Source of the DNA: a virus
Taxonomy: Duplodnaviria > Caudoviricetes
DNA: 64,000 nucleotides
Strand: one strand, 5' to 3'
Virus record (IMG/VR): IMGVR_UViG_2924263452_000001
Span: 63,363-127,362 of that record
Shown piece after piece: positions 13,703 to 33,046 of this stretch (positions within the stretch are counted from its first letter, which is position 1; each line of letters begins with the position of its first letter). Below the pieces are notes generated by a model, which saw only the letters and a list, made by a program, of their open reading frames with translations, searched no databases and had not been told where the DNA came from. Position numbers and translations under genes: made by a program.

Positions 13703-13798
13703 TTATCTTTTATGTTTTTTAGCTTTTGCAATACCGAAACCAACAACAAAAGCTGTTGCGATACAAACGACAAATGCTCCGATATTTATAACAATCAT
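13703..13798 (-). CDS. 31-aa single-TM microprotein coupled to PspA (absent from ORF track)
   Basis: MIVINIGAFVVCIATAFVVGFGIAKAKKHKR; TAATG stop/start overlap with the PspA gene. Confidence 0.7.
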   Translation of the reverse strand: MIVINIGAFVVCIATAFVVGFGIAKAKKHKR

Positions 13799-14565
13799 TA
13801 TTTGTTACCTCGTCTACGTCTCATTTCTGCCAGAATATCATCAGCTTCGCGATTTCTTTCTTGCGCTTCCATTCTACGGTTCATAGCTTCAGAACTGGTA
13901 TCATATGCAATTTGAGCACCTGCAGCACGTTCTCTGGTTCTCTGCGCACCCTCTCTTACTCTTTCAAGCATACGATCACTTTCGCTTGAACTTGCACTTG
14001 CATTCATTCCCTCATGTAAAGAAATAATCTGCTGATCTGCTTCCATCTGGTAAACTGTTCTTTCTTTTTCTTCTTTGAGTTCATCAAGCTCCTGCTTAAT
14101 TGCATTGCGGATTTCTTCCTGCTGTTCTTTTGCTTTTTTGTACTCTTCGATAGTTTCCTTTAATGTATTGATTTTTCCCTGAACAGTAACTTTTTTCATT
14201 GCATACTGTCTGGCATTTTCTTCATCACCAGAATCAAAGCAACTGTTAATAGATTTGTCAATCTTCATTAACTCTTTCTTTAAGTCGTACTGCTCTTTCT
14301 CTGCTTCATCCAGCTTCCCAGCAATTTCTGTATATGACCGTTCTGCATTGCTGTATAAAGTTTCTTTTTCTCTAATTGCATTGTTGAAATAATCTCTTGC
14401 ACCATCTGGTGTAGAAGCATCCTGTCTCACTACTTCTTCGGTTCTTCCTCTAAACTTGATTACAAGCTGCTTAAAGAATGTTTTATTGACTATTAGTGCC
14501 ACTACTGCAACAACAACCAAAAGGCAAATACAAAAAATTACTACGTTACTTGTACCTACTGTCAT
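13798..14565 (-). CDS. PspA/IM30-like coiled-coil protein with N-terminal TM anchor
   Basis: TM helix then long coiled coil, GDEENAR, AGAQIA pattern. Confidence 0.7.
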   Translation of the reverse strand: MTVGTSNVVIFCICLLVVVAVVALIVNKTFFKQLVIKFRGRTEEVVRQDASTPDGARDYFNNAIREKETLYSNAERSYTEIAGKLDEAEKEQYDLKKELMKIDKSINSCFDSGDEENARQYAMKKVTVQGKINTLKETIEEYKKAKEQQEEIRNAIKQELDELKEEKERTVYQMEADQQIISLHEGMNASASSSESDRMLERVREGAQRTRERAAGAQIAYDTSSEAMNRRMEAQERNREADDILAEMRRRRGNK

Positions 14566-14566
14566 T

Positions 14567-15145
14567 TTACGCTACCTCAATTCCAAATTTTTCACAGAGT
14601 TCTTCAAGCCCTCTTACAACACCCTCACCGATTGCGTGGAATTTCCAATCATTTCCATCACGATAAATTTCTCCGGCAATAATAGCAGTAGAATTTCCGA
14701 ACTTTTCTTTAAGATCATATCTTGCGATTTCTTTTCCATTCTTGTTATTAATAACGCGAATGTATGAGTTATCAACCATTCCAAAATTCTGCATACGGCG
14801 TTCTGCTTCAAAGATAGTTGCACAAAATACAATTCTTTCTGCATATTTTGGCAGTTTTTCAAGAATGACCTTAATAACCTCATCATCTCCATCGCCAGAT
14901 CCGGTAAGATTATCACCACTATGTATAACACCACCGCTCGGATGTTCAAGGTTATTGTAGAATATAAAATCTTCATCGCATCTTGTCATTCCAGTTTTTG
15001 TAACAACAAAAGCGGATGCATCTAAATCAAAATCTCCATCGTCATCGTATTTTGCTGTGTCCCAACCAAGACATACAGAGATTCCGTCTACAATACTATC
15101 TTTTGATAATGCAACTCTTTCTCCCTTTTTAAGACTTACTGACAT
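14567..15145 (-). CDS. terD: TerD family protein
   Basis: [42 protein letters not shown]. Confidence 0.92.
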   Translation of the reverse strand: MSVSLKKGERVALSKDSIVDGISVCLGWDTAKYDDDGDFDLDASAFVVTKTGMTRCDEDFIFYNNLEHPSGGVIHSGDNLTGSGDGDDEVIKVILEKLPKYAERIVFCATIFEAERRMQNFGMVDNSYIRVINNKNGKEIARYDLKEKFGNSTAIIAGEIYRDGNDWKFHAIGEGVVRGLEELCEKFGIEVA

Positions 15146-15163
15146 GTTACTTTATCTCCTTCC

Positions 15164-15817
15164 TTATTTATATCTTTTTGCCATATCTGGAATACTGCTA
15201 TCATGTGTTCCTTCTCCGATGGCTTTAAACTGCCACTCGTTGTTTTCATCACGATATAATTCACCAACAATAAGTGCTGTACATCTGTTATAATCATCTG
15301 TAAGATTGTAGCGACAGATTTCTTCTTTGGTTGCATCATCTACGATTCTTGTATAACAGTTTTTAATCATTCCGAAATGCTGCCCTCTTACCCTGCAGTT
15401 ATAAATATTCACGGCTACAACTAACTTTTTAATATCTTCTGGCATTTTCTTCAGATCAATTGCAATCTGTTCATCATCATTCCTTTTACCTGTTCCACCA
15501 ACAAGGTTGTCGCCTCTGTGCTTAATGCAACCACTGTCATGTGTAAGGTTTCCATAATAAACAATATCATCAGATCTTGTCAGACCACATTCTGCAACTT
15601 CTTCTGTTTTTGTTTTTGAGAAAAGCCCGAACAGCCCAGATGTTATTTTCTTTGAGATTTGTTTTGTGGATTCACGAAGTACGAACACAGAAGAATCACA
15701 ATCAATACTGTTTCCATTCTGTGCCATATCCCATCCAAGTCCTACAGTTACATTTGCCAGTTTCTCTACTGCTTTTGAAAGATTTACTTTTTGTCCTTTT
15801 GTTAAACTTACCGCCAT
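15164..15817 (-). CDS. TerD/TerZ family protein
   Basis: SLTKGQKVNL, GLGWD, DCDSS, GDNL, DDEQI, WQFKAIGEG. Confidence 0.9.
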   Translation of the reverse strand: MAVSLTKGQKVNLSKAVEKLANVTVGLGWDMAQNGNSIDCDSSVFVLRESTKQISKKITSGLFGLFSKTKTEEVAECGLTRSDDIVYYGNLTHDSGCIKHRGDNLVGGTGKRNDDEQIAIDLKKMPEDIKKLVVAVNIYNCRVRGQHFGMIKNCYTRIVDDATKEEICRYNLTDDYNRCTALIVGELYRDENNEWQFKAIGEGTHDSSIPDMAKRYK

Positions 15818-15834
15818 TCTTTATTTCCTCCTAC

Positions 15835-16401
15835 TTAAACCCCGAAGCTATTGCAAAGTGCCTGTAAACCGCCAGAATATCCCTGTCCGATTGCATTGAA
15901 CTTCCATTCTCCATTGTGGCGGTACAGTTCGCCAAGAACCATTGCTGTCTCTGTTGAATAATCTTCTCCAAGGTCATAACGAATCATTTCTTCATTTGTT
16001 TCTTTATTCACCATTCTAATATGAGAGTTTGAAACCATACCGAAGTTCTGTAATCTTTCTTCTGCCATATAGATAGTTACAGTAAATGCAACTTTTTCAA
16101 TATCATCAGGAATTTTTGTCAGATCAACGATAATCTGCTCATCATCTCCATTGCCTGAACCAGTGAGATTATCTCCCATATGCTGAACTGCGCCACTTGG
16201 ATGCTTTTTATTGTTAAAGTATATAAAGTCTTTATCACTCTTTACTTTTCCATTTGCACCGAGAAGAAATGCTGATGCATCCAGGTCAAAATCATCACCG
16301 TCATACTTATTTGCATCCCATCCAAGACCGACGATAATTTGCTTTAATCCTTCATTTCCTTTTGTAAGATCCACTTTCTGTCCTTTTACTAAACTTACCA
16401 T
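15835..16401 (-). CDS. terD: TerD family protein
   Basis: [38 protein letters not shown]. Confidence 0.93.
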
Positions 16402-16419
16402 TTTATTTCTCCTTATTAT

Positions 16420-16608
16420 TTATTTTGTTTTACAGGAGCGGCTTTTTCGCCACTCCCTATTTATTAAATAAAACGAAATCGGATATGCCATAATGGTCAA
16501 AAAGATAAATGGTAAAAATTTTATTAGGCATGTTAAGATTAATCCAGTCGCATAACAAATCAATGTAATATTCTCAACTCTCTTATGCTCTTTATCTCTT
16601 TTAACCAT
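16420..16608 (-). CDS. small membrane protein
   Basis: 62 aa, hydrophobic hairpin, in operon. Confidence 0.55.
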   Translation of the reverse strand: MVKRDKEHKRVENITLICYATGLILTCLIKFLPFIFLTIMAYPISFYLINREWRKSRSCKTK

Positions 16609-16616
16609 ATGATTTC

Positions 16617-19241
16617 CTACTTTCTTCTAGTGATTGCTTTTCTCACAAGATCAATCGGAATAATTAAGAATGCCAGGGCTACCGTTACACCCCACTGTGT
16701 AAGTGTCATTGCTGTACATCCCATAATTTCCCCACCAAACTGTGCAAGTAAAAATGTAATGACAAAAATCGCAATTGCTATCTCTACAAAAAGTTTGTTC
16801 TTGCCGATTCCTTTAAACAGGTTAAATCCATCTGTTCTGATATTGAAACCGTTGAATGTTGCCATCATCACAAGTAATGCAAATCTCGCTGTTGCATAAA
16901 CTTCTTCGTTATTTCCAAATATATTCTGTATAGCTGGCAATAATGTGAGTCCAAAAATTCCTATAAATGCCATAACTGATACCGCAATCTGACTAACAGT
17001 TTCTTTTGATAACAGTTTTGATCCTTTTGGAATAGGCTTTTCTTTCATATACTCTTCTTTTGCTGGTTCTCCACCAAAGGAAAGAGAATTAAGAGAATCC
17101 ATAACGATGTTAATTACAAGAATCTGCACTGCTGCAACTGCTTCTACAGCCATAATAATCGGATATAAAATACTGAGAATTACCAGACCTACATTGATAG
17201 GTAACTGGAATTTCAGGAACTTCATAACATTGTGCATGAATGTTCTTCCAAGAAGAACTGCATCCGTAATTGACACAAAATTATCATCTGTAATAATAAT
17301 GTCCCCGGCTTCTTTGCATACATCTGTTCCAGATCCCATTGAAAAGCCAACGTCCGCAGCTTTTAAAGCTGGTGCATCGTTTGTGCCATCACCAGTCATA
17401 CCAACACAAAGTCCAAGTTCCTGTGCCAGTCGCACAATTCTCAGCTTTGTATTCGGTGTAGCTCTTGCGATAACCTTGATATGTGGCAATTTTTCTTTTG
17501 CTTCTTCGTCGGATAATGCATCAAAATCAATAGCTGACATCGCAATATCTGTGTCATCTTTGATAAGCCCGGCATCTTTCGAAATAGCTTTTGCTGTGTC
17601 AATGACATCGCCAGTTACCATCATAACCTGAACACCTGCATCATGCATTCTTTCAACTGCTTCTGGTACTTCTGGACGTACATCATCACGAATAGCAACC
17701 AATGAAGTAATGATAAGATCATCAGGTAAACCATTTTCCGGCAATGCTGATCTACTATAGCCTGTTGCAATTACTCGCATTGCTTTTACCGTGTATGATT
17801 TTACAATATCTTTTAATTTATTTCTTTCAACTGTATGTGTGCCATTTTCATCTTCATATGAAACGGCTACATCAATCAAACGCTCTGGTGCGCCTTTATA
17901 GTATGTGATTTTTCCGTCTTTTCCATCAGTTTCAACTGCACTGAATTTATTTGCACTGTTAAAGCTCTTTGCATTCGTTACCTTTACAGAATCAGTGATT
18001 GTTTTATATTCATCACTATCAATCATAGTAAGTAATGCTCTTTCTGTTGCATTTCCACCTACAATGTTTTTATTCTCGTCATACATAGCACTGCTATTTA
18101 ACGCTACATTCAACTTGAATAAGCTATCCACCATTGTTCCACTTGTAACTTTTTCTCTATTACACATTACATTTTCAACTGGAACAAGTTTTCCGACTGT
18201 AAGTGTTCCTGTCTTATCAGTACAAAGCAACTGAATATTTCCCGCTTCCGGAATTTTATTCGTATGTTTTGCCAGGACATTGTGCTTAATCATAATCTTC
18301 GCATTCTGTGCTGTTATAAGATTAATGATAAGTGGTAAACCTTCCGGCACTGCTGCAACAATAATGGTAAGTGCGGTTACTGCAATAGTAAGAATATTCT
18401 TCAGAACTCCAATCCAACCAATTCCAAAATATTCTGCAACGCCACCATATTGAATGATGTTTGTGATGATTAACGCTACTACAATAATTGAAGCTCCAAT
18501 ATACCCGAATTTGCTAATCTGTTTAGCAAGATCCTCTAACTGGATTTCCAACGATGTTTTTGTTTCTTCAATTTCATCAATAGTTGAGATTGTTTGACCG
18601 TTTACCGTATTAACTCCAACATTGGTTACAATCATTTTTCCCTCACCGTCAACCACTGTTGTTCCGGAGAATAATGCATAATAATTTACATAATCATCTG
18701 AATTTGCTTTTCTTTTTCCACCGATTTCGATATGTGGATTTCCTTTATTCCAGGCACTTTTTTTACATGGCTCAGATTCTCCATTTAAAACAGAATTATC
18801 TACTTTTAAATTTCCTTCAACAAGATATCCGTCTGCATAAATAGCCTCACCTGATTGAACAATAACCAAATCTCCAACAACAAGATCATCCGTGTTAATA
18901 TGTTCTATCTTTCCATCCCTAACCACATTGCAATAATGAACCGATGTCCTATCCCTTAATTCTTTCTCACTTTTCTGGCTTTTTAATCCTATATTCATTC
19001 CAAGAAGCGCAATAGCAAGTAATACTACTGCAACGCCAATCGGTTCTGAATAAGAACCCTGTCCAAACACTGCAATAACTGTGAACACAATCATCATGGC
19101 TAAAAGAATCTGGTTTATGTGATCCTTAAATGTTTCCATGAAGAACTGCAGTCCAGTTTTCATTTTTTTCTCTGGTAACTTGTTTGTCCCAAATTTTTCT
19201 CGGTTTTCAACCACCTGTCTACTTGTTAGTCCTTTTTCCAT
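16617..19241 (-). CDS. P-type (P2, Ca2+-type) cation-transporting ATPase
   Basis: GES, AVPEGL, DKTGT, KGAPE, TGD, GDGTNDAPAL, multiple TM helices. Confidence 0.95.
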   Translation of the reverse strand: MEKGLTSRQVVENREKFGTNKLPEKKMKTGLQFFMETFKDHINQILLAMMIVFTVIAVFGQGSYSEPIGVAVVLLAIALLGMNIGLKSQKSEKELRDRTSVHYCNVVRDGKIEHINTDDLVVGDLVIVQSGEAIYADGYLVEGNLKVDNSVLNGESEPCKKSAWNKGNPHIEIGGKRKANSDDYVNYYALFSGTTVVDGEGKMIVTNVGVNTVNGQTISTIDEIEETKTSLEIQLEDLAKQISKFGYIGASIIVVALIITNIIQYGGVAEYFGIGWIGVLKNILTIAVTALTIIVAAVPEGLPLIINLITAQNAKIMIKHNVLAKHTNKIPEAGNIQLLCTDKTGTLTVGKLVPVENVMCNREKVTSGTMVDSLFKLNVALNSSAMYDENKNIVGGNATERALLTMIDSDEYKTITDSVKVTNAKSFNSANKFSAVETDGKDGKITYYKGAPERLIDVAVSYEDENGTHTVERNKLKDIVKSYTVKAMRVIATGYSRSALPENGLPDDLIITSLVAIRDDVRPEVPEAVERMHDAGVQVMMVTGDVIDTAKAISKDAGLIKDDTDIAMSAIDFDALSDEEAKEKLPHIKVIARATPNTKLRIVRLAQELGLCVGMTGDGTNDAPALKAADVGFSMGSGTDVCKEAGDIIITDDNFVSITDAVLLGRTFMHNVMKFLKFQLPINVGLVILSILYPIIMAVEAVAAVQILVINIVMDSLNSLSFGGEPAKEEYMKEKPIPKGSKLLSKETVSQIAVSVMAFIGIFGLTLLPAIQNIFGNNEEVYATARFALLVMMATFNGFNIRTDGFNLFKGIGKNKLFVEIAIAIFVITFLLAQFGGEIMGCTAMTLTQWGVTVALAFLIIPIDLVRKAITRRK

Positions 19242-21590: not shown

Positions 21591-24293
21591 TTATGCCATT
21601 TGTAATTTAGGTATTCTATCAACATCTCTGTTTGAAAACACTTCTATAAAATTCCCTTTTATATTAATACAACGTTCCCCAAGCTTTCCAATATGTTCAA
21701 TATCACTAAGCTTACGAAACCTATTTTTCCCAATCCTTACTGTATATTTATAATAAATTTTGCTTAAATTAGCACAGGTCATATTCTCTTGTTTTAAAAT
21801 ATCCTGATATATCTCATTTGGAACTACTGCCACATTTATTTTTTTATATTCAATATTTCGTACACATTTATTTTCTTTTAACAATTCTCCACTTTCACAA
21901 TAACTATATATATGAACTTCATCATTGAGTGGATTTATTGTACCTATGCTCGCCTTATACCCATCAATGTCATTTTGAGCTATTAAATTGACACTGATAT
22001 TATCCCACACATTATTCATATAATCTGCATTTTTGTATGGTATTTTTAACTGACCATTATTTCTATCAAGTAGATTATATGTGTTTTCCAATAAGCTTTC
22101 GTCATATATTTTATAAGAAAATGATTCCGGAACTGTAACATACAAATAAACATCTTCATTATTAGAATGCTCTCTTATAGTTCCCAAGTCGTCGTGTCTA
22201 CGTAATCTTCCGATAAACTGTATTAAACTTCCAATCGGACACAAACTGGAAATCCCATAGTCAAAATCAATATCAAGCGACTGCTCTATTATAGAAGTTG
22301 CAATCACTATACATCTTTTTCCTCTATGCTCTCTATTCTTTCCGAATTTCTTCAAAAGTTGCTGCGAAATACTGTCCTTTTGTTCTTGTGTCATTTCACT
22401 ATGAAATTTTATAATTTCTGCATCTGGTATTTTATCAATCAACAAATCATATAATTCATCAACCTCTCTTATTAAATTCCTTTTTATACATATACACGAA
22501 CCATTGCCAATTAAACTTTTGGCTAATTCAACGATTTTATCATAATCATTGTCAATATGCCTCTGTTCATATAATGTAATTCTCTTATTTCCTTCTTCAA
22601 ATACTTTTTCCTGAATAAGTTTTCCTTCTCTGTCTATGATTGAAATTAACGGATATGCAGTTGATATTTCGTTGTACTCACCATATACTCCCAGTAGTTC
22701 TTTCTTCATTCTTACTGGTAATGTTGCAGATAACATAACAACTCTAATCCCAAATATCTTGCACATCTCTAAAAATCTTTTTATTACTTCTAACTGAAAA
22801 TAATCTATGTCGTGAATTTCATCTATAATAACCGTTTTGTTTAGCAATCCCATAAATTCCAAACCATAATACGGAATCTTTCTCACAGACATTAAAATTT
22901 GATCTATTGTTCCCACTACATAAGGGTACATCAATTTAAGTCTTTCATCTGAAAGAATATACGATCTATCTAACACGTTATCCTCGTTGAAGTACGAAGT
23001 TCCAGTATATAATAATGCTTTTTCATTTATATTGCACTCTTTAAGAATGTCCCTAACTCTCCCCAACAATCCTTGCGCTGTACAAGTTGTTGGAGTGGCA
23101 AAATAAACACCGCCAGGGGATCTTGATAGTGCAGCATATATAGCCGCCTCTGTTTTTCCTCCACCACAAGCATCCTCAATAAGAATCAGCGAATAATCGT
23201 TTCTATCACAATATCCGCAAATAACATTCTGAATATTATTGGGACACTTAAATTTCCCAAAAATATTATGATATAATGAGTCTTTTTGTTCATAAGACAT
23301 TGAAAAGTTGCTTATATACTGTTCCTTACATCTCTCAGATATATTATCATATAAATATTTCATATATTCAGAATCTTCTTTAAAATCAAGACTCGTTTTT
23401 AATCCAATCGTCATTTGCCCTGAAGCCAACCAATCAGCAAAAACAACTATACTTGTTATTATTAAAGAAACTAGATCAATAATCTCATTTCCGTCTACAT
23501 CACTGTATAATTTCATATTTGTATTTTCTCCATTATGATACGGAAATAGTTTACAAATATATTTATACATACTTTTAATATCGTCCGGGATTTCGCAACA
23601 ACTCAAAAAATCTCGCGTTTCTGATCTTCCCACTTTATTTTGATGGTGGCACGAAATAATCTTTTTGGCAATCCCTATATTATATCTATCTAAAATCCCA
23701 TCCTTTTTTAAGAGCTGCTCCAAAATGATTTCAGAGTATACTTCATGCCGGAATTTTTTACAATCTCTTTCTGTTGGATTTTTCCAAAATTCATCGTGCA
23801 TTTTTCCTATATCATGAATCGCCGCTAAAAAGATGACAAATCTTTTTACATCGTTTGTATCTGACTCCGTTAATTCAGATATTCTTTTAATAGTATTCCT
23901 GAATATTGTATTACACAAATATTTTGCTATTACACCAGATTCTATTAAATGAATGTGTAAATATTTATCTGGTTTTGCATAATAGTTCATCCAGTTCGTT
24001 ATTTCTTTTTCGTAATTTTTTGTAATCAAATTTATTCCTTCAAAATCATTAAGTTTATATCTTGTTTCTCTAATTGTCTTTATAGAGAATTTTTGCTCTG
24101 CTTTATCACTGTAAATAAGTGTGGCAGAAATTTCTATATTTTCTTTAGATTCGTTTTCTAGCATATTCCATATGTATTCTCTTGTATTCGCAGGACAAGT
24201 TGACAAAAATACATATGGCTTTATTTCATAACAAAATCTAGTTAATTCACCTCTGATTTTATCTGGAATATTTTCACATATAATCAAAAACAT
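21591..24293 (-). CDS. cas3: Cas2(I-E type)-Cas3 (HD nuclease + SF2 helicase) fusion
   Basis: N-terminal ~92 aa ENIPDKIRGELTR..EI..VF..R..IW..EQKF..DFEGINL = Cas2e; HL, IHDIGK, RHE, HH, ADW (HD); CGGGKTEAA, GTIDQ, DEIH, SATLP, EQSLDIDFD, QFIGRLRRH (helicase). Confidence 0.92.
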   Translation of the reverse strand: MFLIICENIPDKIRGELTRFCYEIKPYVFLSTCPANTREYIWNMLENESKENIEISATLIYSDKAEQKFSIKTIRETRYKLNDFEGINLITKNYEKEITNWMNYYAKPDKYLHIHLIESGVIAKYLCNTIFRNTIKRISELTESDTNDVKRFVIFLAAIHDIGKMHDEFWKNPTERDCKKFRHEVYSEIILEQLLKKDGILDRYNIGIAKKIISCHHQNKVGRSETRDFLSCCEIPDDIKSMYKYICKLFPYHNGENTNMKLYSDVDGNEIIDLVSLIITSIVVFADWLASGQMTIGLKTSLDFKEDSEYMKYLYDNISERCKEQYISNFSMSYEQKDSLYHNIFGKFKCPNNIQNVICGYCDRNDYSLILIEDACGGGKTEAAIYAALSRSPGGVYFATPTTCTAQGLLGRVRDILKECNINEKALLYTGTSYFNEDNVLDRSYILSDERLKLMYPYVVGTIDQILMSVRKIPYYGLEFMGLLNKTVIIDEIHDIDYFQLEVIKRFLEMCKIFGIRVVMLSATLPVRMKKELLGVYGEYNEISTAYPLISIIDREGKLIQEKVFEEGNKRITLYEQRHIDNDYDKIVELAKSLIGNGSCICIKRNLIREVDELYDLLIDKIPDAEIIKFHSEMTQEQKDSISQQLLKKFGKNREHRGKRCIVIATSIIEQSLDIDFDYGISSLCPIGSLIQFIGRLRRHDDLGTIREHSNNEDVYLYVTVPESFSYKIYDESLLENTYNLLDRNNGQLKIPYKNADYMNNVWDNISVNLIAQNDIDGYKASIGTINPLNDEVHIYSYCESGELLKENKCVRNIEYKKINVAVVPNEIYQDILKQENMTCANLSKIYYKYTVRIGKNRFRKLSDIEHIGKLGERCINIKGNFIEVFSNRDVDRIPKLQMA

Positions 24294-24316
24294 TTTACAT
24301 TTTCCTTAACCTAAAA

Positions 24317-25575
24317 TATAATACCTTCTCTATATAAGAAGAAATACAGACGGGTTTTCCACTACCATTTGCATTTTTAGAACCACCTTCTCATGCAGAG
24401 AAGAAACCTTACAAAAGGATATGCTCAGTGTTACAATACAGGAATTACCTTCTCATATAGAGAAGAAGCATCGAACATATGTATCTATGTGACAAACACG
24501 AAGAATTACCTTCTCGTATAGAGAAGAAACTTCTGTTTATCTGTATTTATGCTCGAACATTTAGAATAACCTTCTCATGTAGAGAAGAAACATCGGTGCT
24601 GCCAATCAAGAGCAATCAACCGCTCAGAATAACCTTCTCATATAGAGAAGAAATTGAAATCCCCATTTCGAGGCAACAAATAGATTTAGAGTTACCTTCT
24701 CATATAGAGAAGAAATAAAGAAGCTATAAAAAAGCCAAGCGAGGACACAGAGTTACCTTCTCATATAGAGAAGAAATTTTTGATATGGATTCCGGCAGCA
24801 GTCGCGCCATAGAGTTACCTTCTCATATAGAGAAGAAGCCCTGACAAGTCCTTATGATACGATACACTATGAGAATTACCTTCTCATACAGAGAAGAAAT
24901 GTCTGCACAACTGCATCGTGATCTGACTCTTTAGAATTACCTTCTCATATAGAGAAGAAATTAAAAGCTTACTTTCCCACTTCTTTCTGCGGTGAGAACT
25001 ACCTTCTCATATAGAGAAGAAACAGAGGGATAATTGGAGGATCAGATTCTTTTTCGGAATTACCTTCTCATATAGAGAAGAAACACAAAAACTTGCGGGC
25101 TATCTCTTGATGCGTGGGGAATGACCTTCTCATGTAGAGAAGAAACTGTGCCACGCACCGGAAGCTCTCCATATTCAAGAATCACCTTCTCATATAGAGA
25201 AGAAACAGCGGCTAGCACTGTAAGAAATGGCTTGTCTTTAGAACTACCTTCTCATATAGAGAAGAAACCGGCAATATTCACCTTTATGGCACACCTGCAA
25301 GAGAATAACCTTCTCATGTAAAGAAGAAACGTACTCAGATTTTCTTGAAAGTTCTCTCCTGGAGAATAACCTTCTCATGTAGAGAAGAAACTTGATCCAT
25401 TTGAGATCTTTTCCCTCGCAATTAGAATAACCTTCTCATATAGAGAAGAAACTGATAAGAATTTTTATGTCTATTGATTGCCTCAGAATAACCTTCTCAT
25501 GTAGAGAAGAAACATGTTCCGCGGTTGCAAATGCTGATCTGATCTGAGAATAACCTTCTCATGTAGAGAAGAAAC
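24317..25575 (-). CRISPR. CRISPR array: 21 repeats (29 nt, GTTTCTTCTCTAYATGAGAAGGTWATTCT), 20 spacers of ~31-34 nt
   Basis: ~61-62-nt periodicity; CTTCTC/GAGAAG hairpin; I-E-like layout; degenerate terminal repeat at 24317. Confidence 0.98.
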
Positions 25576-25583
25576 TCCATAGT

Positions 25584-26201
25584 TTATAAGATTACAAACG
25601 GTAACATAAGCCCACTTCCATATGATTTTTGCTGCCCGATTCCATTTTTGCAAGCTTCAATGAATTTGTCACGATCATCTATTCTTACACGTAAAATGAA
25701 TGTCGATATTCCTAATTCTCTGCTCTTCACACCGTCCTTTGCAATATAGCACGATGTTTGGATTTCTTTATAAATTTTTTTCACCGTTGCACCGGATTCC
25801 AACATCTTTCTTATAACCCAATTTTCTTTTTCATATGAATCAGTAATGAGCATTTTTCTACTACTATTTTTTTCTTTTGACTTTATAACGTCAGTTTTTA
25901 CTGGGTTCACATGAATCTCAATATCAATTTCGTCATCTTCTATACATTCATCATAATTGATTTCTTCAGAATGAACCACAGAAAATCCTGTACATGCTTC
26001 AACATTTGGTTTATTTATAGACTGTAGAAAAATCACCTGATCTTTTTCATCGTTATAAAATAACACGCCTTCTTCTTTTCTATTTGATTTAAACATCCGC
26101 ATAATTGTCTTATGCATCTTATCAAAATCATGCAACTCCATTCGCATTTTTTTTATGTCATATTTTAAAATATATAAATACATAGCATCTAACCTCTGCA
26201 A
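25584..26201 (-). CDS. cas6e: Cas6e/Cse3 crRNA endoribonuclease; start probably MYLY near 26183
   Basis: HKTIMRMF, VNPVK, G-rich loop GIGQQKSYGSGLM. Confidence 0.9.
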   Translation of the reverse strand: MQRLDAMYLYILKYDIKKMRMELHDFDKMHKTIMRMFKSNRKEEGVLFYNDEKDQVIFLQSINKPNVEACTGFSVVHSEEINYDECIEDDEIDIEIHVNPVKTDVIKSKEKNSSRKMLITDSYEKENWVIRKMLESGATVKKIYKEIQTSCYIAKDGVKSRELGISTFILRVRIDDRDKFIEACKNGIGQQKSYGSGLMLPFVIL

Positions 26202-26728
26202 TTCCTATACGAACACCTTTTTGTTATTTTGTACATCTTACTTACATCAACTCTTTCTACTCCTTTGAAAACATTCCCTGCCGGATATTCCTTTCGACCA
26301 AGGTATAAATCTCTCTTCGGATGTTCAAGACAATAACCAATTCCTTTTGTAATATAATCATCATAAAGTCTAAAATACAAAACGAATTTCTTATCTACTA
26401 TGGCTTCTTTTCTTACGATAGAAAGCCCTTTAGGATCTATTTTCCCATTTCCACACATATGCTTATCCATGTTCGATTTATGAAAATCTTCCATGATTGA
26501 ACATGCTCCACTCATATCTGACTGTTCTGTATCTAAATATAGTTCAATATTATCTTCGATATAATCAATAAGTGGATTTTTATAAGTTAGATTTAGTGCG
26601 TTTTCAATTAATCCTCCAACTCCTGATAAGGTTGGTATGTATGATGTTCTTTTAAATATAGGTGTACTTGCAGTACCCCACGATTGAAGTGGGGCAGCAA
26701 ATACTAATTTTCCGTATAACTTTTCCAT
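26189..26728 (-). CDS. cas5: Cas5e
   Basis: APLQSWG, PTLSGVGGL, LYLGRK. Confidence 0.9.
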   Translation of the reverse strand: MEKLYGKLVFAAPLQSWGTASTPIFKRTSYIPTLSGVGGLIENALNLTYKNPLIDYIEDNIELYLDTEQSDMSGACSIMEDFHKSNMDKHMCGNGKIDPKGLSIVRKEAIVDKKFVLYFRLYDDYITKGIGYCLEHPKRDLYLGRKEYPAGNVFKGVERVDVSKMYKITKRCSYRNCRG

Positions 26729-28008
26729 TAGATATTTTCCTTTACAAAATCCATAATATCTTTTTCCTTATATGTCACACTTACATTTTCATCCGTAAGT
26801 CCAAATTCTTCTTTTCTAGCAAAATATGAAGGACGTAAAAACAGCTTTTTCTTCTCTTCTTTTATCCCCTCATTGTTTTTAATAATAGCAGAATCAATAA
26901 ATGTGTTTAAAGCATCAATCGAATCTTTGGCTGGAATACGAAAATCCACATCATATGCATCTCTTCTTTGACCAAATGTAACATACATTAATATAGGTTC
27001 TGATTCTGAAAAGTATGAATTTCGTCCTCCTGTTGGATGTGACCAATAGATAGCTTCCATGTAAATGCCGATAATTAAACGTGCTATTTCTCTCGCTTCT
27101 TCTCTTGTTTCTATTCCATTGTATCTCATTTCATTTTCGATCATCTGATTTATGTCAATACAGTATTCTTCCAGTAAAAGTGGTGAACTAATATCTATAT
27201 CAAATAAGTTTGCTGCACCAGGATTCTTATACGGATCGTATTTGTTTCCAAAAACAGTTTCTCTTCTTGACTGATAACTAGAATTGTATGCCTCTTCAAT
27301 TACACTAAAAGCACAAGCAACGGAAACAGAGCTATTAATTGTTTTAATGAAGCATGTGCTCATTCTTCCAAGTAAACAAAGTAAATGTCCGCAGCTATGT
27401 AATTTCCCAATTCTTAAAATAACTTCGTTTTTAAATTTAGTCTGAAGCTCTTTATCCGAAAAATCATCTACCGTTTTGAAAAATTCAATAAATGTATCTG
27501 CAATACATTTAATCTCATTTACAGAATATTTATTACTTTCTTTTGTTGTAATTGAAATACTTTCACTGCTTGATTTTTTTGGTTTCTTGTTACATTTACT
27601 ATCACTCTTATCATTTCCATCTTTAAAAATATTTTTCAAAATCAATAAAATTCTATCTTCCTCATCATCACTTAACTCTACACCAGTTTCCTTTTTGAAA
27701 TAACCTCTAAGATATTCGGCTAAAATAAGTTCACCAATTCTTCTTGTATCTCTTCCAATATCTAATCCCTTATATAGCTGCTTAATATATTCTTTCTGTC
27801 CATTCTTGATCGCCGCACTACTGCAAAACGTTCTGTCAACTCCATTGTAAGTAATAGTTTTAATATTACCAACGCCATCGCAATTTAAACGGGCAGCTTT
27901 GTATGATCTTAATACATGTACATTGATAATATTATTTTCATTGTCATTCATTCTTCTTTCAATAATTTCTTTAATGCATTCAATTTCTGTCATTTTTCTT
28001 TCCTCCAC
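26728..28008 (-). CDS. cas7: Cas7e/Cse4 (divergent)
   Basis: HVLRSY...LNCDGVGNIKT..Y.G..R...SS..IK, LLGRM, PTGGRNSY. Confidence 0.85.
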   Translation of the reverse strand: MEERKMTEIECIKEIIERRMNDNENNIINVHVLRSYKAARLNCDGVGNIKTITYNGVDRTFCSSAAIKNGQKEYIKQLYKGLDIGRDTRRIGELILAEYLRGYFKKETGVELSDDEEDRILLILKNIFKDGNDKSDSKCNKKPKKSSSESISITTKESNKYSVNEIKCIADTFIEFFKTVDDFSDKELQTKFKNEVILRIGKLHSCGHLLCLLGRMSTCFIKTINSSVSVACAFSVIEEAYNSSYQSRRETVFGNKYDPYKNPGAANLFDIDISSPLLLEEYCIDINQMIENEMRYNGIETREEAREIARLIIGIYMEAIYWSHPTGGRNSYFSESEPILMYVTFGQRRDAYDVDFRIPAKDSIDALNTFIDSAIIKNNEGIKEEKKKLFLRPSYFARKEEFGLTDENVSVTYKEKDIMDFVKENI

Positions 28009-28477
28009 TTGATAAATATTTTATTAATTTTTTCCCTGAATATTCCCAATTGCAAGCAAGCATATATAAATCATACATGTCACAACCATTTTCTTTTGAT
28101 AATGATTTTATTAACCTCTGACATATCCTCTTTGCTGTATGATTAAATTCCTTCTGTGTTACAAATGTTTCTATATTGCTTTTTGCTGATCCTGAAATTT
28201 CTGATGAATAGTAGTTTCTTTTTAATATATCACCTATTTTACTTGCCCCTGCTCCAATTGGATCTCTCATATTTAAAGCTAAAGAAACTACAAAAAGCAA
28301 ATTTCCATCAAACTTCTTGATTTCAGGAAAACTTGTATAATACGCAAGCAACTGTTCTCCACTAAGCTCATCTTCCGAATCTACATTTATTGCTTTTTTC
28401 AAATCTCTTCTTCTTTTAGAATTTTCTCTTTTAGTAAGAAGATTAAGTCCTTTATAAAACTCTTCTCTGCTTAACAT
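27980..28477 (-). CDS. cas11: putative internally initiated Cas11/Cse2 (165 aa)
   Basis: in-frame ATG (codon 551) with GGGGAG 5 nt upstream; R.DLKK and RL...L......D...L...W Cse2-like patterns. Confidence 0.6.
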   Translation of the reverse strand: MLSREEFYKGLNLLTKRENSKRRRDLKKAINVDSEDELSGEQLLAYYTSFPEIKKFDGNLLFVVSLALNMRDPIGAGASKIGDILKRNYYSSEISGSAKSNIETFVTQKEFNHTAKRICQRLIKSLSKENGCDMYDLYMLACNWEYSGKKLIKYLSSGGKKNDRN

Positions 28478-30127
28478 ATACACTCCCCGCACATTGTAAA
28501 CCGTATTATCCGGAATATCATTTGCACCATATTCTTTATATAAATATGCGAAAAATTTATTCTTTCTTCGTTCACATTCGATTCCTATAAACCTATCGCC
28601 ATACTTTTTAAATATTTTTATGGCTTCGGTTGTTACCCATTTAATCGCATTGTCTTTGTCGCCACTATTTATAATATCCATTAAGTTCTTATTTATAAAA
28701 AGTGCAGTTTCACATTGATACATGAAATTGTTTAATGCTGACTCTGCGATAACTGATCCTTTTGCTTTTCGGTTCTCTCCAAAACGTCTAATAGTGTCTA
28801 TATCTTTAATTGCTTTGTAAATCTCTTTTGCAATCGCTGCTATGTCATCACAAACTAATCGCAATAGTTTTACATTTACATTTTTATTTATTTGATACTC
28901 CAAGTTAATCATTTCTCTAACCTGACTGGTGTTTATTATATCAAACCCAACCAACTTAATAGAAAAATCGTCTGGGAGAAATTCGATATTATCTCTAGCA
29001 CTATTTAATCCGCTTATACCCATACCAGAAGCGATAGAGTTTCCTGATGACGGTATAAGAGCGTACATTTTCAAAAATGGCTTGTTATCTATTCCAGATC
29101 CTTCTAAGTCAATACAATTGCAAGCTTTCAGTTGCTTCCCATTCACTTTATAAACATTTGGATCGCGAACCTTCCATATTTTTGAGATCTTTTCTCTTTG
29201 TCCCGCATTTATTGATGGTTTTTTAAAATAAATGCTTCTTATAACCCCATTTTCATAGTCAACATTTCCGTATCTTATAAAATTATACGGTGTCATATAA
29301 CAATTCATAAATTTTATTTCGTGCAAGCCATTCTTATCATTTTTGTCGCGGTCAATTTCTGAATATATTTTCAGCATATCCGAATACTGTTTTCTTCTAT
29401 AAAATGGTACTCCTGAATAGTCAATATCCTTCGACGAAATATTTAGAAGTAATGTTTCAAAAACATTATTCGCTTTTATAATGCCAATCATAACAGTATT
29501 ACCTAATAATGTAGAAGCCCATCCAAGTCCATTCGCTCCAGAATAAAACATTCTGAGACACAATATATACAAATATTCTTGGAATGTCACACTTGCAAAT
29601 TTTATATAACTGTTTTCCTTTGAATACACAAAGCCGTTTCGTGTGGTATCTTCCTTGTAATAATTTTCATATGCTTCTACATCCATATACCCGTAAAACA
29701 TATCATTTGTTTCTTTTTTACAGGTTGGAACAATAAAACCAATTGGTCTTTCTTTTGCTTCAATTTCTCCGGCTGCATACTGTGCGAATGCTTTTTTCTC
29801 ACCAAGCAGCTCAAATGACGTTCCTTCTTTTCTGCAGTTGTCAAAATATTCTCTAATAATATCCATATCAAATCTGCCTTTTTTAAGAAGATCATATATA
29901 TCACTTTTTCTTTCAGTTGATCGCGGTTTATAGATGTCACACAAGAACAAATCTAACAATCGAATAATTCCAACTGCAGTCATATCAACTCCCAGAACTG
30001 GCAATATTTCTTTGTATTCATGAGCATTTTCAAAAAGTTCAAGAACAGATACATTTATATCATTTCCACTCTTATCTTTAACTCTGATGCATTTACTTTC
30101 TAAAATATCGTATGTTGTATTCATCAA
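27980..30127 (-). CDS. cas8e: Cas8e/Cse1 fused in frame to Cas11/Cse2
   Basis: Cse1 N-terminus YDILE..I.V...G....VS..ELF..A, IIRLL, FELL....FAQ; C-terminal 165 aa Cse2-like. Confidence 0.8.
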   Translation of the reverse strand: MMNTTYDILESKCIRVKDKSGNDINVSVLELFENAHEYKEILPVLGVDMTAVGIIRLLDLFLCDIYKPRSTERKSDIYDLLKKGRFDMDIIREYFDNCRKEGTSFELLGEKKAFAQYAAGEIEAKERPIGFIVPTCKKETNDMFYGYMDVEAYENYYKEDTTRNGFVYSKENSYIKFASVTFQEYLYILCLRMFYSGANGLGWASTLLGNTVMIGIIKANNVFETLLLNISSKDIDYSGVPFYRRKQYSDMLKIYSEIDRDKNDKNGLHEIKFMNCYMTPYNFIRYGNVDYENGVIRSIYFKKPSINAGQREKISKIWKVRDPNVYKVNGKQLKACNCIDLEGSGIDNKPFLKMYALIPSSGNSIASGMGISGLNSARDNIEFLPDDFSIKLVGFDIINTSQVREMINLEYQINKNVNVKLLRLVCDDIAAIAKEIYKAIKDIDTIRRFGENRKAKGSVIAESALNNFMYQCETALFINKNLMDIINSGDKDNAIKWVTTEAIKIFKKYGDRFIGIECERRKNKFFAYLYKEYGANDIPDNTVYNVRGVYMLSREEFYKGLNLLTKRENSKRRRDLKKAINVDSEDELSGEQLLAYYTSFPEIKKFDGNLLFVVSLALNMRDPIGAGASKIGDILKRNYYSSEISGSAKSNIETFVTQKEFNHTAKRICQRLIKSLSKENGCDMYDLYMLACNWEYSGKKLIKYLSSGGKKNDRN

Positions 30128-30145
30128 TTTCCTTTCTATTATATT

Positions 30146-33046
30146 TTATATTTTCCCTATAGTTAAAATTCCTTCGTCTAACAACTGATTTATATATTGC
30201 AAAAGTGTTTCCTGAGTTTCCAAATCTTTTTCTGTTTCAATTTCTTGATAATCGAAAAACTTTTTAAAATTGTTTTTACCCATACCGCCCCAACAAGTAC
30301 AATAACAATGAACTTCGTGGCGATAATACGGCTTATCATAAATTCCAATCCATACAGAATTGTCAGTACAATACTTTCTATCTGCATCTGTTCCAATGCT
30401 TTTTGAAATACACCAGGCATTTATCACATCATTTCGCCAGAACAACGGCTCTTTGATTTTAGAGCAATCATTTACAATCAGTTTATTTATGTCTGAAGGT
30501 TTCAAGTTATATTTATTCTCGACTTTTGGTTTTCTCATATTGCAGCCTCCTAGAATGATAACCACGAATCTTCATCGTTTGGATCAATATAAGAACTAGA
30601 TAACATATGTATTTCACCACAACATTTACACACCACTTCATGTCTTTCCCTGTCATTGATAATATCACAATATTTTACATTCATAGGTAAGTGGCAATAA
30701 TACCCAACTGCATTCTTAGTGTGACCACAAGGGGCTTTAGGTCTTTTCCCAAACAGTTTGAATAATAACCATTGGAATTTTGCATATCTGCGTTCATCCA
30801 ATTGAATTTTCCAAAGTAAAAATCTCATTCATATCATCCTTTTTTGCTATGTATTTTTAGGTCACGACATCCAAGCAGAGACAACTTTCAAATCTTCTTT
30901 CTTTACAAGATCTTCCGAAATAACTAAATCATTTTCATTCATTTCGTATATTTCCTTGCATTGTTTCTCAATTCTGTCTCTATCCCTAGGTGTAAATAAC
31001 CCGCCGCGTCTTATTTTTATCTCGTTACATTTGGCTTCTATTGCATCTTCAATAGGGACACCATTCATACGCATTTCGATAATACCATTACTGCCACAAG
31101 GCAAATAGAAATGTTTCTGGCACTTTGTACAAGACTCTTTATAATACGTGTAATTTTCGTGTCCTTTAATCTGAAAAGCACATCCAGAACTAATCCATCT
31201 TTCACTACGTTTCTTACAAAGCGGGCAAAATAATATGTTATTAATTGGAAACATCCTGTTCTTTCCTCCTTGTACCATAATCAAAAGCTCCAATATCTTC
31301 TGTGTCTACACATTTTACAAAGTCCTCTATACAAGCATCCATATCTTCGAAATACATACTGGTCAACGAATGCGTGAATATTCCAGGAGCACGTTCTTCT
31401 ATGGTTTCACAATCTTCTTTAGCATATCCCCCACCAACCAAAACAAAAACTGTTTTATAGTCTTTCTTATGTTCATCCCAGAATTTCTTTATTGCTTCGA
31501 GAAGTTTTACTCTTTCAAGAATTTTACTGTTTTCAATAACATCTTCTATAACGCCTTTCTCTGGTGTAACTTCAGAACATGCTCCATATTTTTTATATCT
31601 TGCAGCATACTCTTCGCTAATTGGCGCATATAAGCCTTCTGGGATTTTTTCATTGTATGCGATTTTTAAGTTAGTTCTTAATCCCGGCAAATCATTTCCT
31701 TCAAGCAAAATATCATAACCATGTTCCTGATCCACTTTTATCCTTGCTAATTGGTTGTAAGGAACGATAGTATCTGGATCAATTGCAACTCTTTTGAGTC
31801 CCAAATATGCTGACTCAACACCACAACCATACGATCTATAATCATTATACTCTATGTAATATTTCCAAGTATTTTTTGGACAATATGCTGCCTTTGCTAC
31901 CACAACATAACCAACAGCAATCTCATTTGTGCCGATTATTCGCGCCATATATGTAAATGGTTCTTGTGCATTTGTGGAATCAAAATTATAATGTGGAGTT
32001 CCTACTCGCATCATTTTATTTCTTTCTCCTGTACATATTTCGCAAAATCAACAAGCTGCTTTCTTTTACTTTCAGCATCACTGTCATTCGTATAAACATA
32101 TCCAAGTGTTATTTCAATTGTCTTACATACTCCAATGATGCATCTTAAATTTTCGTCTTTCCCTGAATATTCATATTTTATTCCGGACGCAGCAAGGTCA
32201 ACAACTGAAAGCACCCAGTCTATAACTGTTGTATCTTTTCCTGCCAGCTTATCAAAAAATCGCTTGTACTTTATAAACACGTATTTACAGGCATATCCAA
32301 GTGACTTGAATATTGCGTCACATATTCCAATGATTTCCATAAAAGCTTTATCCTTGTCACTTGAAGTTCCTGATCCGCATGATGATCTTGCAATTTCCAA
32401 TATGCTATCAGCCCAGTCAATTACAATATTCCCACTCATGTTATACCTTTCTTACCTGAATAAACTTGCCTGTTTTTCAAGCATATGTGCGAAAATTCCG
32501 CCTATGGCTTTATTTACTGCACTGTAAATATCTCTCTGTGTTGCCTCTTTATTGGCTTTACACGCTTTACTACAATATTTTAATCTCCGGCAGAGTTTAC
32601 AATTTCCATCGGAAAGCCAGCGTTCATTGTCAATTGATTTCGTCATAACATCTTTCCTCTTCGTCGTTATCACTGTCAGCAGAAAAAATAATCTCTTTGA
32701 TTTCATCAGCCTTTTCCTCTGGCAGATATTCTGAAAGTGGGAATAACTTGTCAATTTCTTCAAATACAAAACCAAGTGTTCCAATAGCTCCTATAGCCTG
32801 ATGAAATTTCGGAATCTCATCAAGAATTTCTTCTGACACAATCTCAGTACAAGCCTGAGCTTTTTCCATAAGGACAAAAAATTCATTTGTCAAAATCTCG
32901 ACAAACTTTTTCATATTTTCGGAATCTTTGTTTTCCGGATTAACTGTCGCAGCCTGAGTTGCTTTCACAGGTCTTTTTCTGTAATGCCCGTTTCTATTTC
33001 TTCTCTGGTGGCTTCTATTTCCATTGAATTTCTCATTGTTATTCAT
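30146..33046 (-). other. run of hypothetical phage ORFs (30146-30565, 30550-30828, 30862-31293, 31241-32014, 32011-32439, 32452-c.32650, 32630-33046)
   Basis: tightly packed co-oriented ORFs, several with CxxC pairs. Confidence 0.6.

Follow-up and report, generated by a model that had tools for sequence, protein, structure and literature searches.

The 64,000-nucleotide stretch of DNA analysed here (the window) is the right half of a linear, 127,362-bp virus record in IMG/VR (IMGVR_UViG_2924263452_000001), the completeness of which is estimated by CheckV at approximately 75%. Its minus strand carries, in this order, a cas8e-like gene, cas7e, cas5e and cas6e, a clustered regularly interspaced short palindromic repeat (CRISPR) array, and a gene in which cas2e is fused to the front of cas3. 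The combination of cas1e with a stand-alone cas2e that is a feature of type I-E systems was not found at this locus, where the sole Cas2e is the domain at the N-terminus of Cas3. Genes were assigned by using Pfam, NCBIfam and PADLOC profiles, which agree with one another and bear out both the gene order (cas8e, cas7, cas5, cas6e, cas2-cas3) and the coordinates that had been read from the letters alone in an initial annotation.

The matches to Cas families, together with a repeat array of 21 copies, lie far beyond what chance would produce. The cas7e gene (Cse4/CasC; 26728-28008) matches PF09344 (E = 5e-19) and the PADLOC Cas7e profile (1.7e-21), cas5e (CasD; 26189-26728) matches PF09704 (E = 2.2e-11) and PADLOC Cas5e (4.8e-16), and cas6e (CasE; 25584-26201), which codes for the CRISPR RNA (crRNA) endonuclease, matches PF08798 (E = 1.4e-21) as well as TIGR01907 (51.3 bits versus a cut-off of 45.2). 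All three Pfam matches exceed their cut-offs. The large subunit gene (27980-30127) codes for a very divergent protein of 715 amino acids, or of 714 if translation begins at the ATG at 30124, the N-terminal part of which matches both PF09481 (Cse1; E = 3.3e-8, 33.6 bits versus a cut-off of 24.7) and PADLOC Cas8e (1.7e-10). Thus the genes for the Cascade complex match type I-E models and not those for Cas8f, Cas5f, Cas7f and Cas6f. The array occupies positions 24322-25575 and has the consensus repeat GTTTCTTCTCTAYATGAGAAGGTWATTCT, and the fusion gene (21591-24293) follows it. Just upstream of cas8, a consensus scan revealed a candidate operon promoter (TTAACT-17-TATAAT; 30138-30166, minus strand) with 10 of 12 positions matching. 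Neighbours in the operon overlap or are separated by no more than 8-28 nucleotides, and therefore a single transcript that runs through the array and into cas2-cas3 is likely.

The fusion protein of 900 amino acids begins with a Cas2e domain (residues 1-95, encoded at 24009-24293) that matches PF09707 over residues 1-89 (E = 9.9e-18). This domain is followed by an HD nuclease domain (residues 112-293; 23415-23960; PF18019, E = 2.2e-15) and by a superfamily 2 helicase core (residues ~355-705; 22179-23231; TIGR01587, E = 2.7e-47) that includes a DEAD domain (371-528) and a Cas3 C-domain (598-701). PADLOC recognises both Cas3e (6.6e-111) and Cas2e (2.4e-19) in the same protein, and TIGR01873 matches above its cut-off. 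Every catalytic motif is in place, as the initial annotation had proposed on inspection. The HD residues H115, H160-D161, H183, H216-H217 and D287 are all present, as are helicase motifs I (GxGKT, residues 377-381), II (DEIH, 491-494), III (SAT, 522-524) and VI (QxxGRxxR, 692-699), and these positions correspond to invariant columns in an alignment of 30 fused homologues. An AlphaFold model computed from the same 30-sequence alignment (predicted local distance difference test score, pLDDT, 80.6; predicted template modelling score 0.80) places a ferredoxin-like Cas2 domain, with a beta-alpha-beta-beta-alpha-beta fold, ahead of the HD domain.

Fusion of Cas2 to Cas3 is regarded as the hallmark of type I-F systems, and the two halves of this protein were therefore compared with structures and profiles of both types. 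The best matches of the model in Foldseek are to the type I-E Cas3 of Thermobifida fusca, with template modelling (TM) scores of 0.70-0.72 (0.71 for the best, 4QQW), whereas the Cas2/3 structures of type I-F reach only about 0.45. By sequence also, type I-E Cas3 structures match the Cas3 part far better than do those of type I-F, and the I-F profile TIGR02562 yields 44 bits (cut-off 566) over 84 amino acids only. The Cas2 part, for its part, matches the E. coli Cas2 structures 4MAK, 4P6I and 5DS4 by phmmer (E of about 3e-5 over residues 1-91), which together with PF09707 and PADLOC Cas2e bears out the earlier assignment of this domain to the I-E type. Since both halves match I-E families and structures, the profile and model evidence indicates that the Cas2-Cas3 fusion arose in type I-E independently of that in type I-F, and the convergence suggested at the outset is upheld. 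We could also discard the concern that the fusion is an artefact of assembly. Independent samples yielded 23 contigs that code for exactly this 900-amino-acid protein, and a further 1, 11 and 16 contigs (28 in all) code for three alleles approximately 98% identical to it, bringing the total to 51 contigs.

To place the fusion among its relatives, its first 300 residues were used in a HMMER scan of 1.84 billion representative proteins. About 45 full-length proteins, each representing a cluster, have a match that begins in the Cas2 domain and continues into the HD domain, and a local Cas2 profile finds the domain in 59 of 196 full-length homologues. In a FastTree phylogeny of the Cas3 part, 39 fused and 12 unfused proteins, among them the fusion from the window, form one clade with a support of 99. 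When a reduced set was analysed with IQ-TREE, the corresponding 39 rows made up exactly one side of a branch, with a Shimodaira-Hasegawa-like approximate likelihood ratio test (SH-aLRT) value of 99. A second group of fused proteins (P0177, P0192, P0207, P0246 and P0257; 1016-1060 amino acids) lies far from the main clade and adjoins Cas3 proteins from Nocardiopsis and Salinactinospora, and its location elsewhere in the tree argues for more than one origin of the Cas2-Cas3 fusion within type I-E. The fused variant is rare: among the 399 scorable genomes of 401 sampled from the class of an uncultured Clostridia bacterium (metagenome-assembled genome G001), there was no match to the Cas2-HD part at E <= 1e-8.

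Several members of the fused clade reside in bacterial loci that are more complete than that of the phage. The closest relatives, L030/L031, are 39% identical to the phage protein over residues 1-296, and they share with L033 the order cas8e-cas11-cas7-cas5-cas6e-cas1-leader-array-cas2/3. L033 derives from a metagenome-assembled genome of Agathobacter sp. (GCA_017472825.1), in which the fusion (MBQ8626148.1) is annotated by NCBI as Cas3 only. Elsewhere in the clade, cas1 is found just after the fusion (L001, P0006) or just before it (L025). These relatives encode a Cas1 of the ordinary Cas1e type, with named homologues from Lachnospiraceae and Peptoniphilus. Because the array lies directly upstream of cas2-cas3 in L030/L031 and L033, this position is taken to be ancestral for the sub-lineage, and the phage locus corresponds to the bacterial layout minus cas1 and the leader.

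These comparisons alter one proposal of the initial annotation, in which the fusion was viewed as a feature of the phage locus. It seems instead to have been inherited from a type I-E clade whose bacterial members keep cas1 beside it, and thus the retention of Cas2 by the phage calls for no special phage function. Furthermore, the architecture is not unique to this phage, since it recurs in bacteria and in other phage-like contigs.

The claim that cas1 is missing from the locus was confirmed and could be extended, in that the Cas1 profile PF01867 has no match in the whole 127,362-bp record; 'no cas1' as used here covers the locus and this record, or about 75% of the phage genome. Two other mobile-element-like members of the clade are of the same kind. 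One, L021, is a 54-kb contig that carries a fused system with no cas1, along with genes for DNA polymerase III alpha, sigma-70, NrdD and Cas12a. It retains a leader of about 70 nucleotides that is almost the same as the leader of L030, a bacterial locus with cas1 (L021:9026-9092 versus L030:8866-9011). As a candidate for taking up spacers in trans, this contig surpasses the phage in the window. The other, L062, lies in a huge-phage genome from IMG/VR (467,383 bp, 100% complete) that has direct terminal repeats. Its operon (L062:4179-11655), which ends in a Cas2e-Cas3 fusion, has the order cas8e-cas11-cas7-cas5-cas6e-cas2/3. There is no Cas1 anywhere in the 467,383-bp record, and the 9 kb around the operon contain no CRISPR array. 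When loci are compared for cas1e, leader and array beside the fusion, L001, P0006, L025, L030/31 and L033 carry cas1, and the window, L021 and L062 do not. As judged from these gene contents, loss of cas1 appears to recur on mobile elements that carry the fused system.

The array itself speaks to whether spacers are still being added. It is composed of 21 repeats of 29 nucleotides and 20 spacers of 31-34 nucleotides. Read on the minus strand, each repeat has a hairpin (CTTCTC, a loop of 5 nucleotides, GAGAAG) followed by 8 nucleotides, which is the type I-E layout. The first repeat begins 8 nucleotides past the cas6e stop codon, and the degenerate last repeat ends 28 nucleotides ahead of the cas2-cas3 ATG, so there is no room for a leader. 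The spacing of 8 nucleotides is the same in 13 of the 13 phage contigs that span the junction, which indicates that the loss of cas1 is older than their divergence. The junction (window 25576-25583, and the same place in L035-L043) occurs in two versions among strains, ACTATGGA and CAGAGGAA. A candidate leader motif, ATAAAC, shared with L030 at the position before the first repeat, was rejected when the 8-nucleotide junction of other strain groups proved to differ.

Repeats in the phage arrays are highly polymorphic, with a mean pairwise difference of 2.8-3.9 nucleotides, whereas those of the cas1-bearing arrays are nearly uniform in L031 (0.6 nucleotides) and L030 (1.1) and less so in L033 (2.1). 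Such polymorphism is read as a sign of rare spacer uptake in the 2025 classification (PMC12669027). Across 70 repeats the hairpin stem CTTCTC/GAGAAG hardly changes even as the loop and the 8-nucleotide handle vary, and it therefore appears that processing by Cas6e is under selection. In some repeats (window 24322-24350, and the arrays of L010 and L044), the loop of 5 nucleotides is inverted, reading CTTCTC-ATATA-GAGAAG rather than -TATAT-, which suggests flipping of hairpin loops within repeats.

A total of 51-52 distinct spacers are present across 26 phage arrays. Arrays within one allele group differ by internal deletions only, and spacer 1 is always first, but the spacer sets differ greatly between allele groups. 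Unique spacers are also found inside arrays, and some arrays are mosaics built from two groups. A graph of spacer order in the 26 arrays is acyclic, and hence the loss of different spacers from a single long ancestral array, together with recombination, suffices to explain all of them. One spacer stands out: the second-to-last spacer of L036, L042 and L044, which is absent from the array in the window, occurs in three versions, with differences at 5-6 of its 32 positions, next to shared spacers that have 0-1 differing positions. This could reflect drift, re-acquisition, or exchange with a variable target. A second apparent case of hypervariability, spacer id 36, was set aside as a 1-nucleotide indel in a run of A residues.

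Searches for spacer targets gave no match in the phage's own genome or the flanks of its siblings, in INPHARED phages (three arrays) or PLSDB plasmids, in IMG/VR (four spacers, with every sixth base masked), or in JGI metagenomes (one spacer). With no protospacer found, no protospacer-adjacent motif (PAM) could be derived.

The Cas2 domain shows signs of constraint. Among four phage alleles, the ratio of nonsynonymous to synonymous polymorphism (pN/pS) is 0.24-0.33 in this domain (1-8 changes per class), compared with 0.00-0.23 in the HD, helicase and C-terminal parts and 0.03-0.16 over the whole fusion gene. The domain is therefore constrained, less strongly than the remainder of the protein. 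The ratio of divergence in Cas2 to that in the Cas3 core is 1.09 for the phage and 0.89-1.07 in the other aligned fused proteins, several of which come from cas1-bearing loci. This pattern fits either a structural role within Cas3 or a residual function, and does not tell one from the other.

The large subunit presents a separate puzzle, because there is no open reading frame for a separate cas11 between cas8 and cas7 in the phage locus. The initial annotation had listed cas8e-cas11 at this place, of which the cas8e portion is borne out by profile matches. Furthermore, comparison with the Cas8e proteins of four relatives by hhalign gives a probability of 96.8% over residues 6-323. At 715 amino acids, the phage protein is about as long as the Cas8e (515-568) and Cas11 (168-180) of its relatives combined, and its C-terminal 165 residues (551-715; 27983-28477, minus strand) are a candidate equivalent of Cas11. 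The likeness of this region to the conserved C-terminal Cas11 motif of the relatives is weak (BLASTP E = 0.023, hhalign E = 0.14). Translation from an in-frame ATG at M551, which follows the letters GGGGAG, would yield a product of 165 amino acids. AlphaFold modelling of residues 480-715, run with no alignment, returned a pLDDT of 37.5. The same C-terminus gave no usable match in the ESM Atlas, nothing by phmmer against the PDB, and nothing relevant in Pfam at E values up to 10, and a search for shorter homologues returned only fragments of the same protein. The stand-alone small subunits of the relatives barely match Cse2 themselves (E of 0.03-0.1). We consider that the Cas11 equivalent may be fused into Cas8 or be made from the internal M551 start, which leaves the second portion of the earlier claim plausible but unproven.

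Taken together, these observations are probably best explained if the phage locus descends from a little-described type I-E lineage with Cas2e at the N-terminus of Cas3 and, having lost cas1 and the leader, serves for interference only. The mechanism outlined here is drawn from the anatomy of the locus and from knowledge of the type I-E systems of E. coli and T. fusca. One transcript would start from the candidate promoter upstream of cas8 and proceed through the array and into cas2-cas3. Cas6e would cleave at the base of each repeat hairpin to release crRNAs of 61 nucleotides, and the same cleavage would part the Cascade message from the cas2-cas3 message. Cascade, formed from Cas8e, Cas7e, Cas5e and Cas6e, would then locate matching DNA and recruit Cas2-Cas3, whereupon the HD domain would nick the DNA and the helicase would drive its degradation. 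By analogy with other phage systems, the targets are probably competing mobile elements. The Cas2 domain would be an inherited part of the nuclease that is maintained by purifying selection, rather than a phage adaptation for borrowing Cas1, and the array would be an old spacer store, altered chiefly through deletions and through recombination among strains that circulate together.

Several observations weigh against this interpretation. Interference is here a prediction from the gene content. Likewise, the identification of the record as that of a phage is based on its IMG/VR label and on its many PHROG replication and nucleotide-metabolism genes alone. Given that the Cas2 domain has diverged no faster than the Cas3 core, it may retain a function. 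The record is about 75% complete and contains no structural genes, so that a distant cas1, although unlikely, could lie outside it. Finally, the arrays of the window, L010 and L035 have few or no spacers in common even though their Cas2-Cas3 proteins are approximately 98% identical, and L036 and L042 have different four-spacer blocks (spacers 42-44 plus 22, and 45-48) on the cas6e side of one shared core (31-32). These blocks and the poor sharing of spacers also fit polarised gain after the loss of cas1.

The last of these points lead to the strongest competing explanation, which we nevertheless judge to be unlikely, namely that adaptation occurs in trans. The phage Cas2-Cas3 would work with a host Cas1e, or a host Cas1-Cas2/3 would act on the phage array, such that spacers are still gained, possibly in a manner coupled to interference as in type I-F priming. 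The number of distinct spacers among strains with nearly identical fusions and the blocks at the cas6e side of the shared core are what would be expected of such a system. So too are an intact Cas2 domain that is under purifying selection and diverges no faster than the core, and the presence in bacteria of the likely host type (Lachnospiraceae) of a Cas1e adjoining the same fusion. For L021, which has lost cas1 but keeps a leader like that of a cas1-bearing locus, use in trans is plausible.

Against this, the phage has no leader, and the gap of 8 nucleotides between cas6e and the first repeat varies in sequence by strain group. Its repeats are highly polymorphic, unlike those of actively growing arrays, and unique spacers lie inside arrays that all fit one ancestral order with no need for gain. 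Moreover, a search for the repeat core in 185,579 species-representative genomes returned seven single matches at the level expected by chance and no array. We therefore regard an old array that is seldom or never extended as more likely than acquisition in trans. The recruitment of host Cas1 by the fused Cas2, which the initial annotation had raised as a role for this domain, is left with no positive evidence; the leader is gone, the repeats are highly polymorphic, and the pattern of spacers from strain to strain fits loss and recombination alone. The most specific form of the proposal is more doubtful still. In it, the phage Cas2-Cas3 and a Cas1e of the Lachnospiraceae type would together add spacers to the leaderless, operon-embedded array through interference-coupled capture like that of the type I-F Cas1-Cas2/3. 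If true, the pairing with a host Cas1e would constitute an independently evolved, trans-acting priming machine on a virus.

A different explanation, to which we attach a very low probability, holds that cas1 is encoded in the missing quarter (~25%) of the phage genome and that the system is a complete I-E variant with a split layout. The record is indeed a linear fragment, with no match to terminase (PF03237) or HK97 capsid (PF05065) profiles across its whole 127,362 bp, and relatives differ in where cas1 sits, some having it ahead of the fusion, some behind it and some between cas6e and the array. However, every relative that bears cas1 has it inside the cas locus, the complete relative phage L062 has no Cas1, and the part absent from the 75%-complete record is probably the structural module. 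A weak further argument is that none of the 120 best lineage-related Cas1e clusters has any of the long contigs of this phage as its longest contig.

The least probable explanation, that the locus is an inert remnant incapable of interference, would accommodate the lack of a spacer target in any collection searched and the degenerate loops and handles of the repeats, but it is hard to reconcile with five genes that are intact on 51 contigs, with the pN/pS values over the whole fusion gene, with the presence of all catalytic motifs, and with an invariant Cas6e-binding stem.

Beyond the cas locus, the record contains only genes for replication, nucleotide metabolism, tRNA repair and recombinases. 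Just downstream of cas2-cas3 (window 13798-19241) are three TerD genes together with genes for a PspA-like protein and a P-type cation ATPase; gene calling in most of the sibling contigs adds a vWA/TerF-like gene, placed between the ATPase gene and the first TerD. From this gene content, the block appears to be a stress or tellurite-resistance-like module on the phage. The sequencing runs in which a quarter or more of the sampled words occur carry the labels bioreactor and pig gut, with two others unlabelled or labelled plainly as 'metagenome', and the habitat of the phage is probably gut-associated.

Compared with canonical type I-E systems (E. coli K-12; T. fusca, 4QQW and 6C66), the phage locus has the same Cas8e, Cas7e, Cas5e and Cas6e families, a Cas3 with the fold of 4QQW (TM 0.71), and a Cas2 domain like the E. 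coli Cas2 seen in Cas1-Cas2 complexes (4P6I, 5DS4). Its repeats are likewise 29 nucleotides long, with a 3' hairpin and an 8-nucleotide handle, and its spacers are of 31-34 nucleotides. It departs from these systems in that Cas2 is fused to Cas3, there is neither cas1 nor a separate cas11, and a leaderless array is embedded in the operon between cas6e and cas2-cas3. The Agathobacter-type lineage (L030/L031, L001) is closer, having the same fusion, Cas3 clade and gene order together with a related repeat architecture. Unlike the phage, these bacterial loci carry cas1, a leader and a separate cas11, and L030 has a terminator and an AT-rich gap ahead of cas2-cas3.

With the Cas2/3 proteins of type I-F (Pseudomonas aeruginosa 5B7I, 8FLJ and 9P11; phage ICP1 8K22), the phage fusion shares only the domain order Cas2-HD-helicase. 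The two differ in the short match to TIGR02562, in the TM score of about 0.45, and in a Cascade that in type I-F is built from Cas8f, Cas5f, Cas7f and Cas6f. As a rule, cas1 is retained in type I-F systems, that of ICP1 among them, and spacers are acquired. Huge phages also carry CRISPR-Cas systems that have no adaptation module and no cas1 and whose array lies beside the effector genes, as Al-Shayeb et al. reportedly described in 2020 and 2022. Relative to those systems, the phage examined here differs in that a Cas2 domain survives as part of Cas3. That a phage can deploy a Cas2/3 system against a rival element is documented for the Vibrio phage ICP1 (PMC6452262).

The main text of the 2025 classification describes several type I-E derivatives in which components are fused or lost, specifically I-E2 (Cas5-HNH), I-E3 (Cas11-PD-(D/E)xK) and I-E5 (CRISPR-associated transposon, CAST), none of which, as described there, has a Cas2-Cas3 fusion (Makarova et al. 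2025, PMC12669027). That main text contains no description of a type I-E Cas2-Cas3 fusion, and I-E4 is not described in it (PMC12669027). Nor is such a fusion described in Altae-Tran et al. 2023 or in what full-text literature searches returned. Within these sources, the possibility that the architecture had already been catalogued was not borne out.

Our findings indicate that type I-E independently acquired its own Cas2-Cas3 fusion, a trait treated as the type I-F hallmark, and did so at least twice on the Cas3 tree. The main fused clade comprises about 39 clusters from gut bacteria, other mobile-element-like contigs and phage contigs. Its phage members offer an example of how a phage may pare a bacterial CRISPR system down to a weapon, such that cas1 and the leader are gone and Cas2 survives only within the nuclease. 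For annotation, this means that a match to Cas2 on a phage is not evidence of a capacity for adaptation. The main value of the finding is not the single phage locus but the wider lineage, bacterial and phage members alike, which represents a second Cas2-Cas3 system of independent origin and would be a natural setting in which to ask whether the tethering of Cas2 to Cas3 couples interference with spacer capture.

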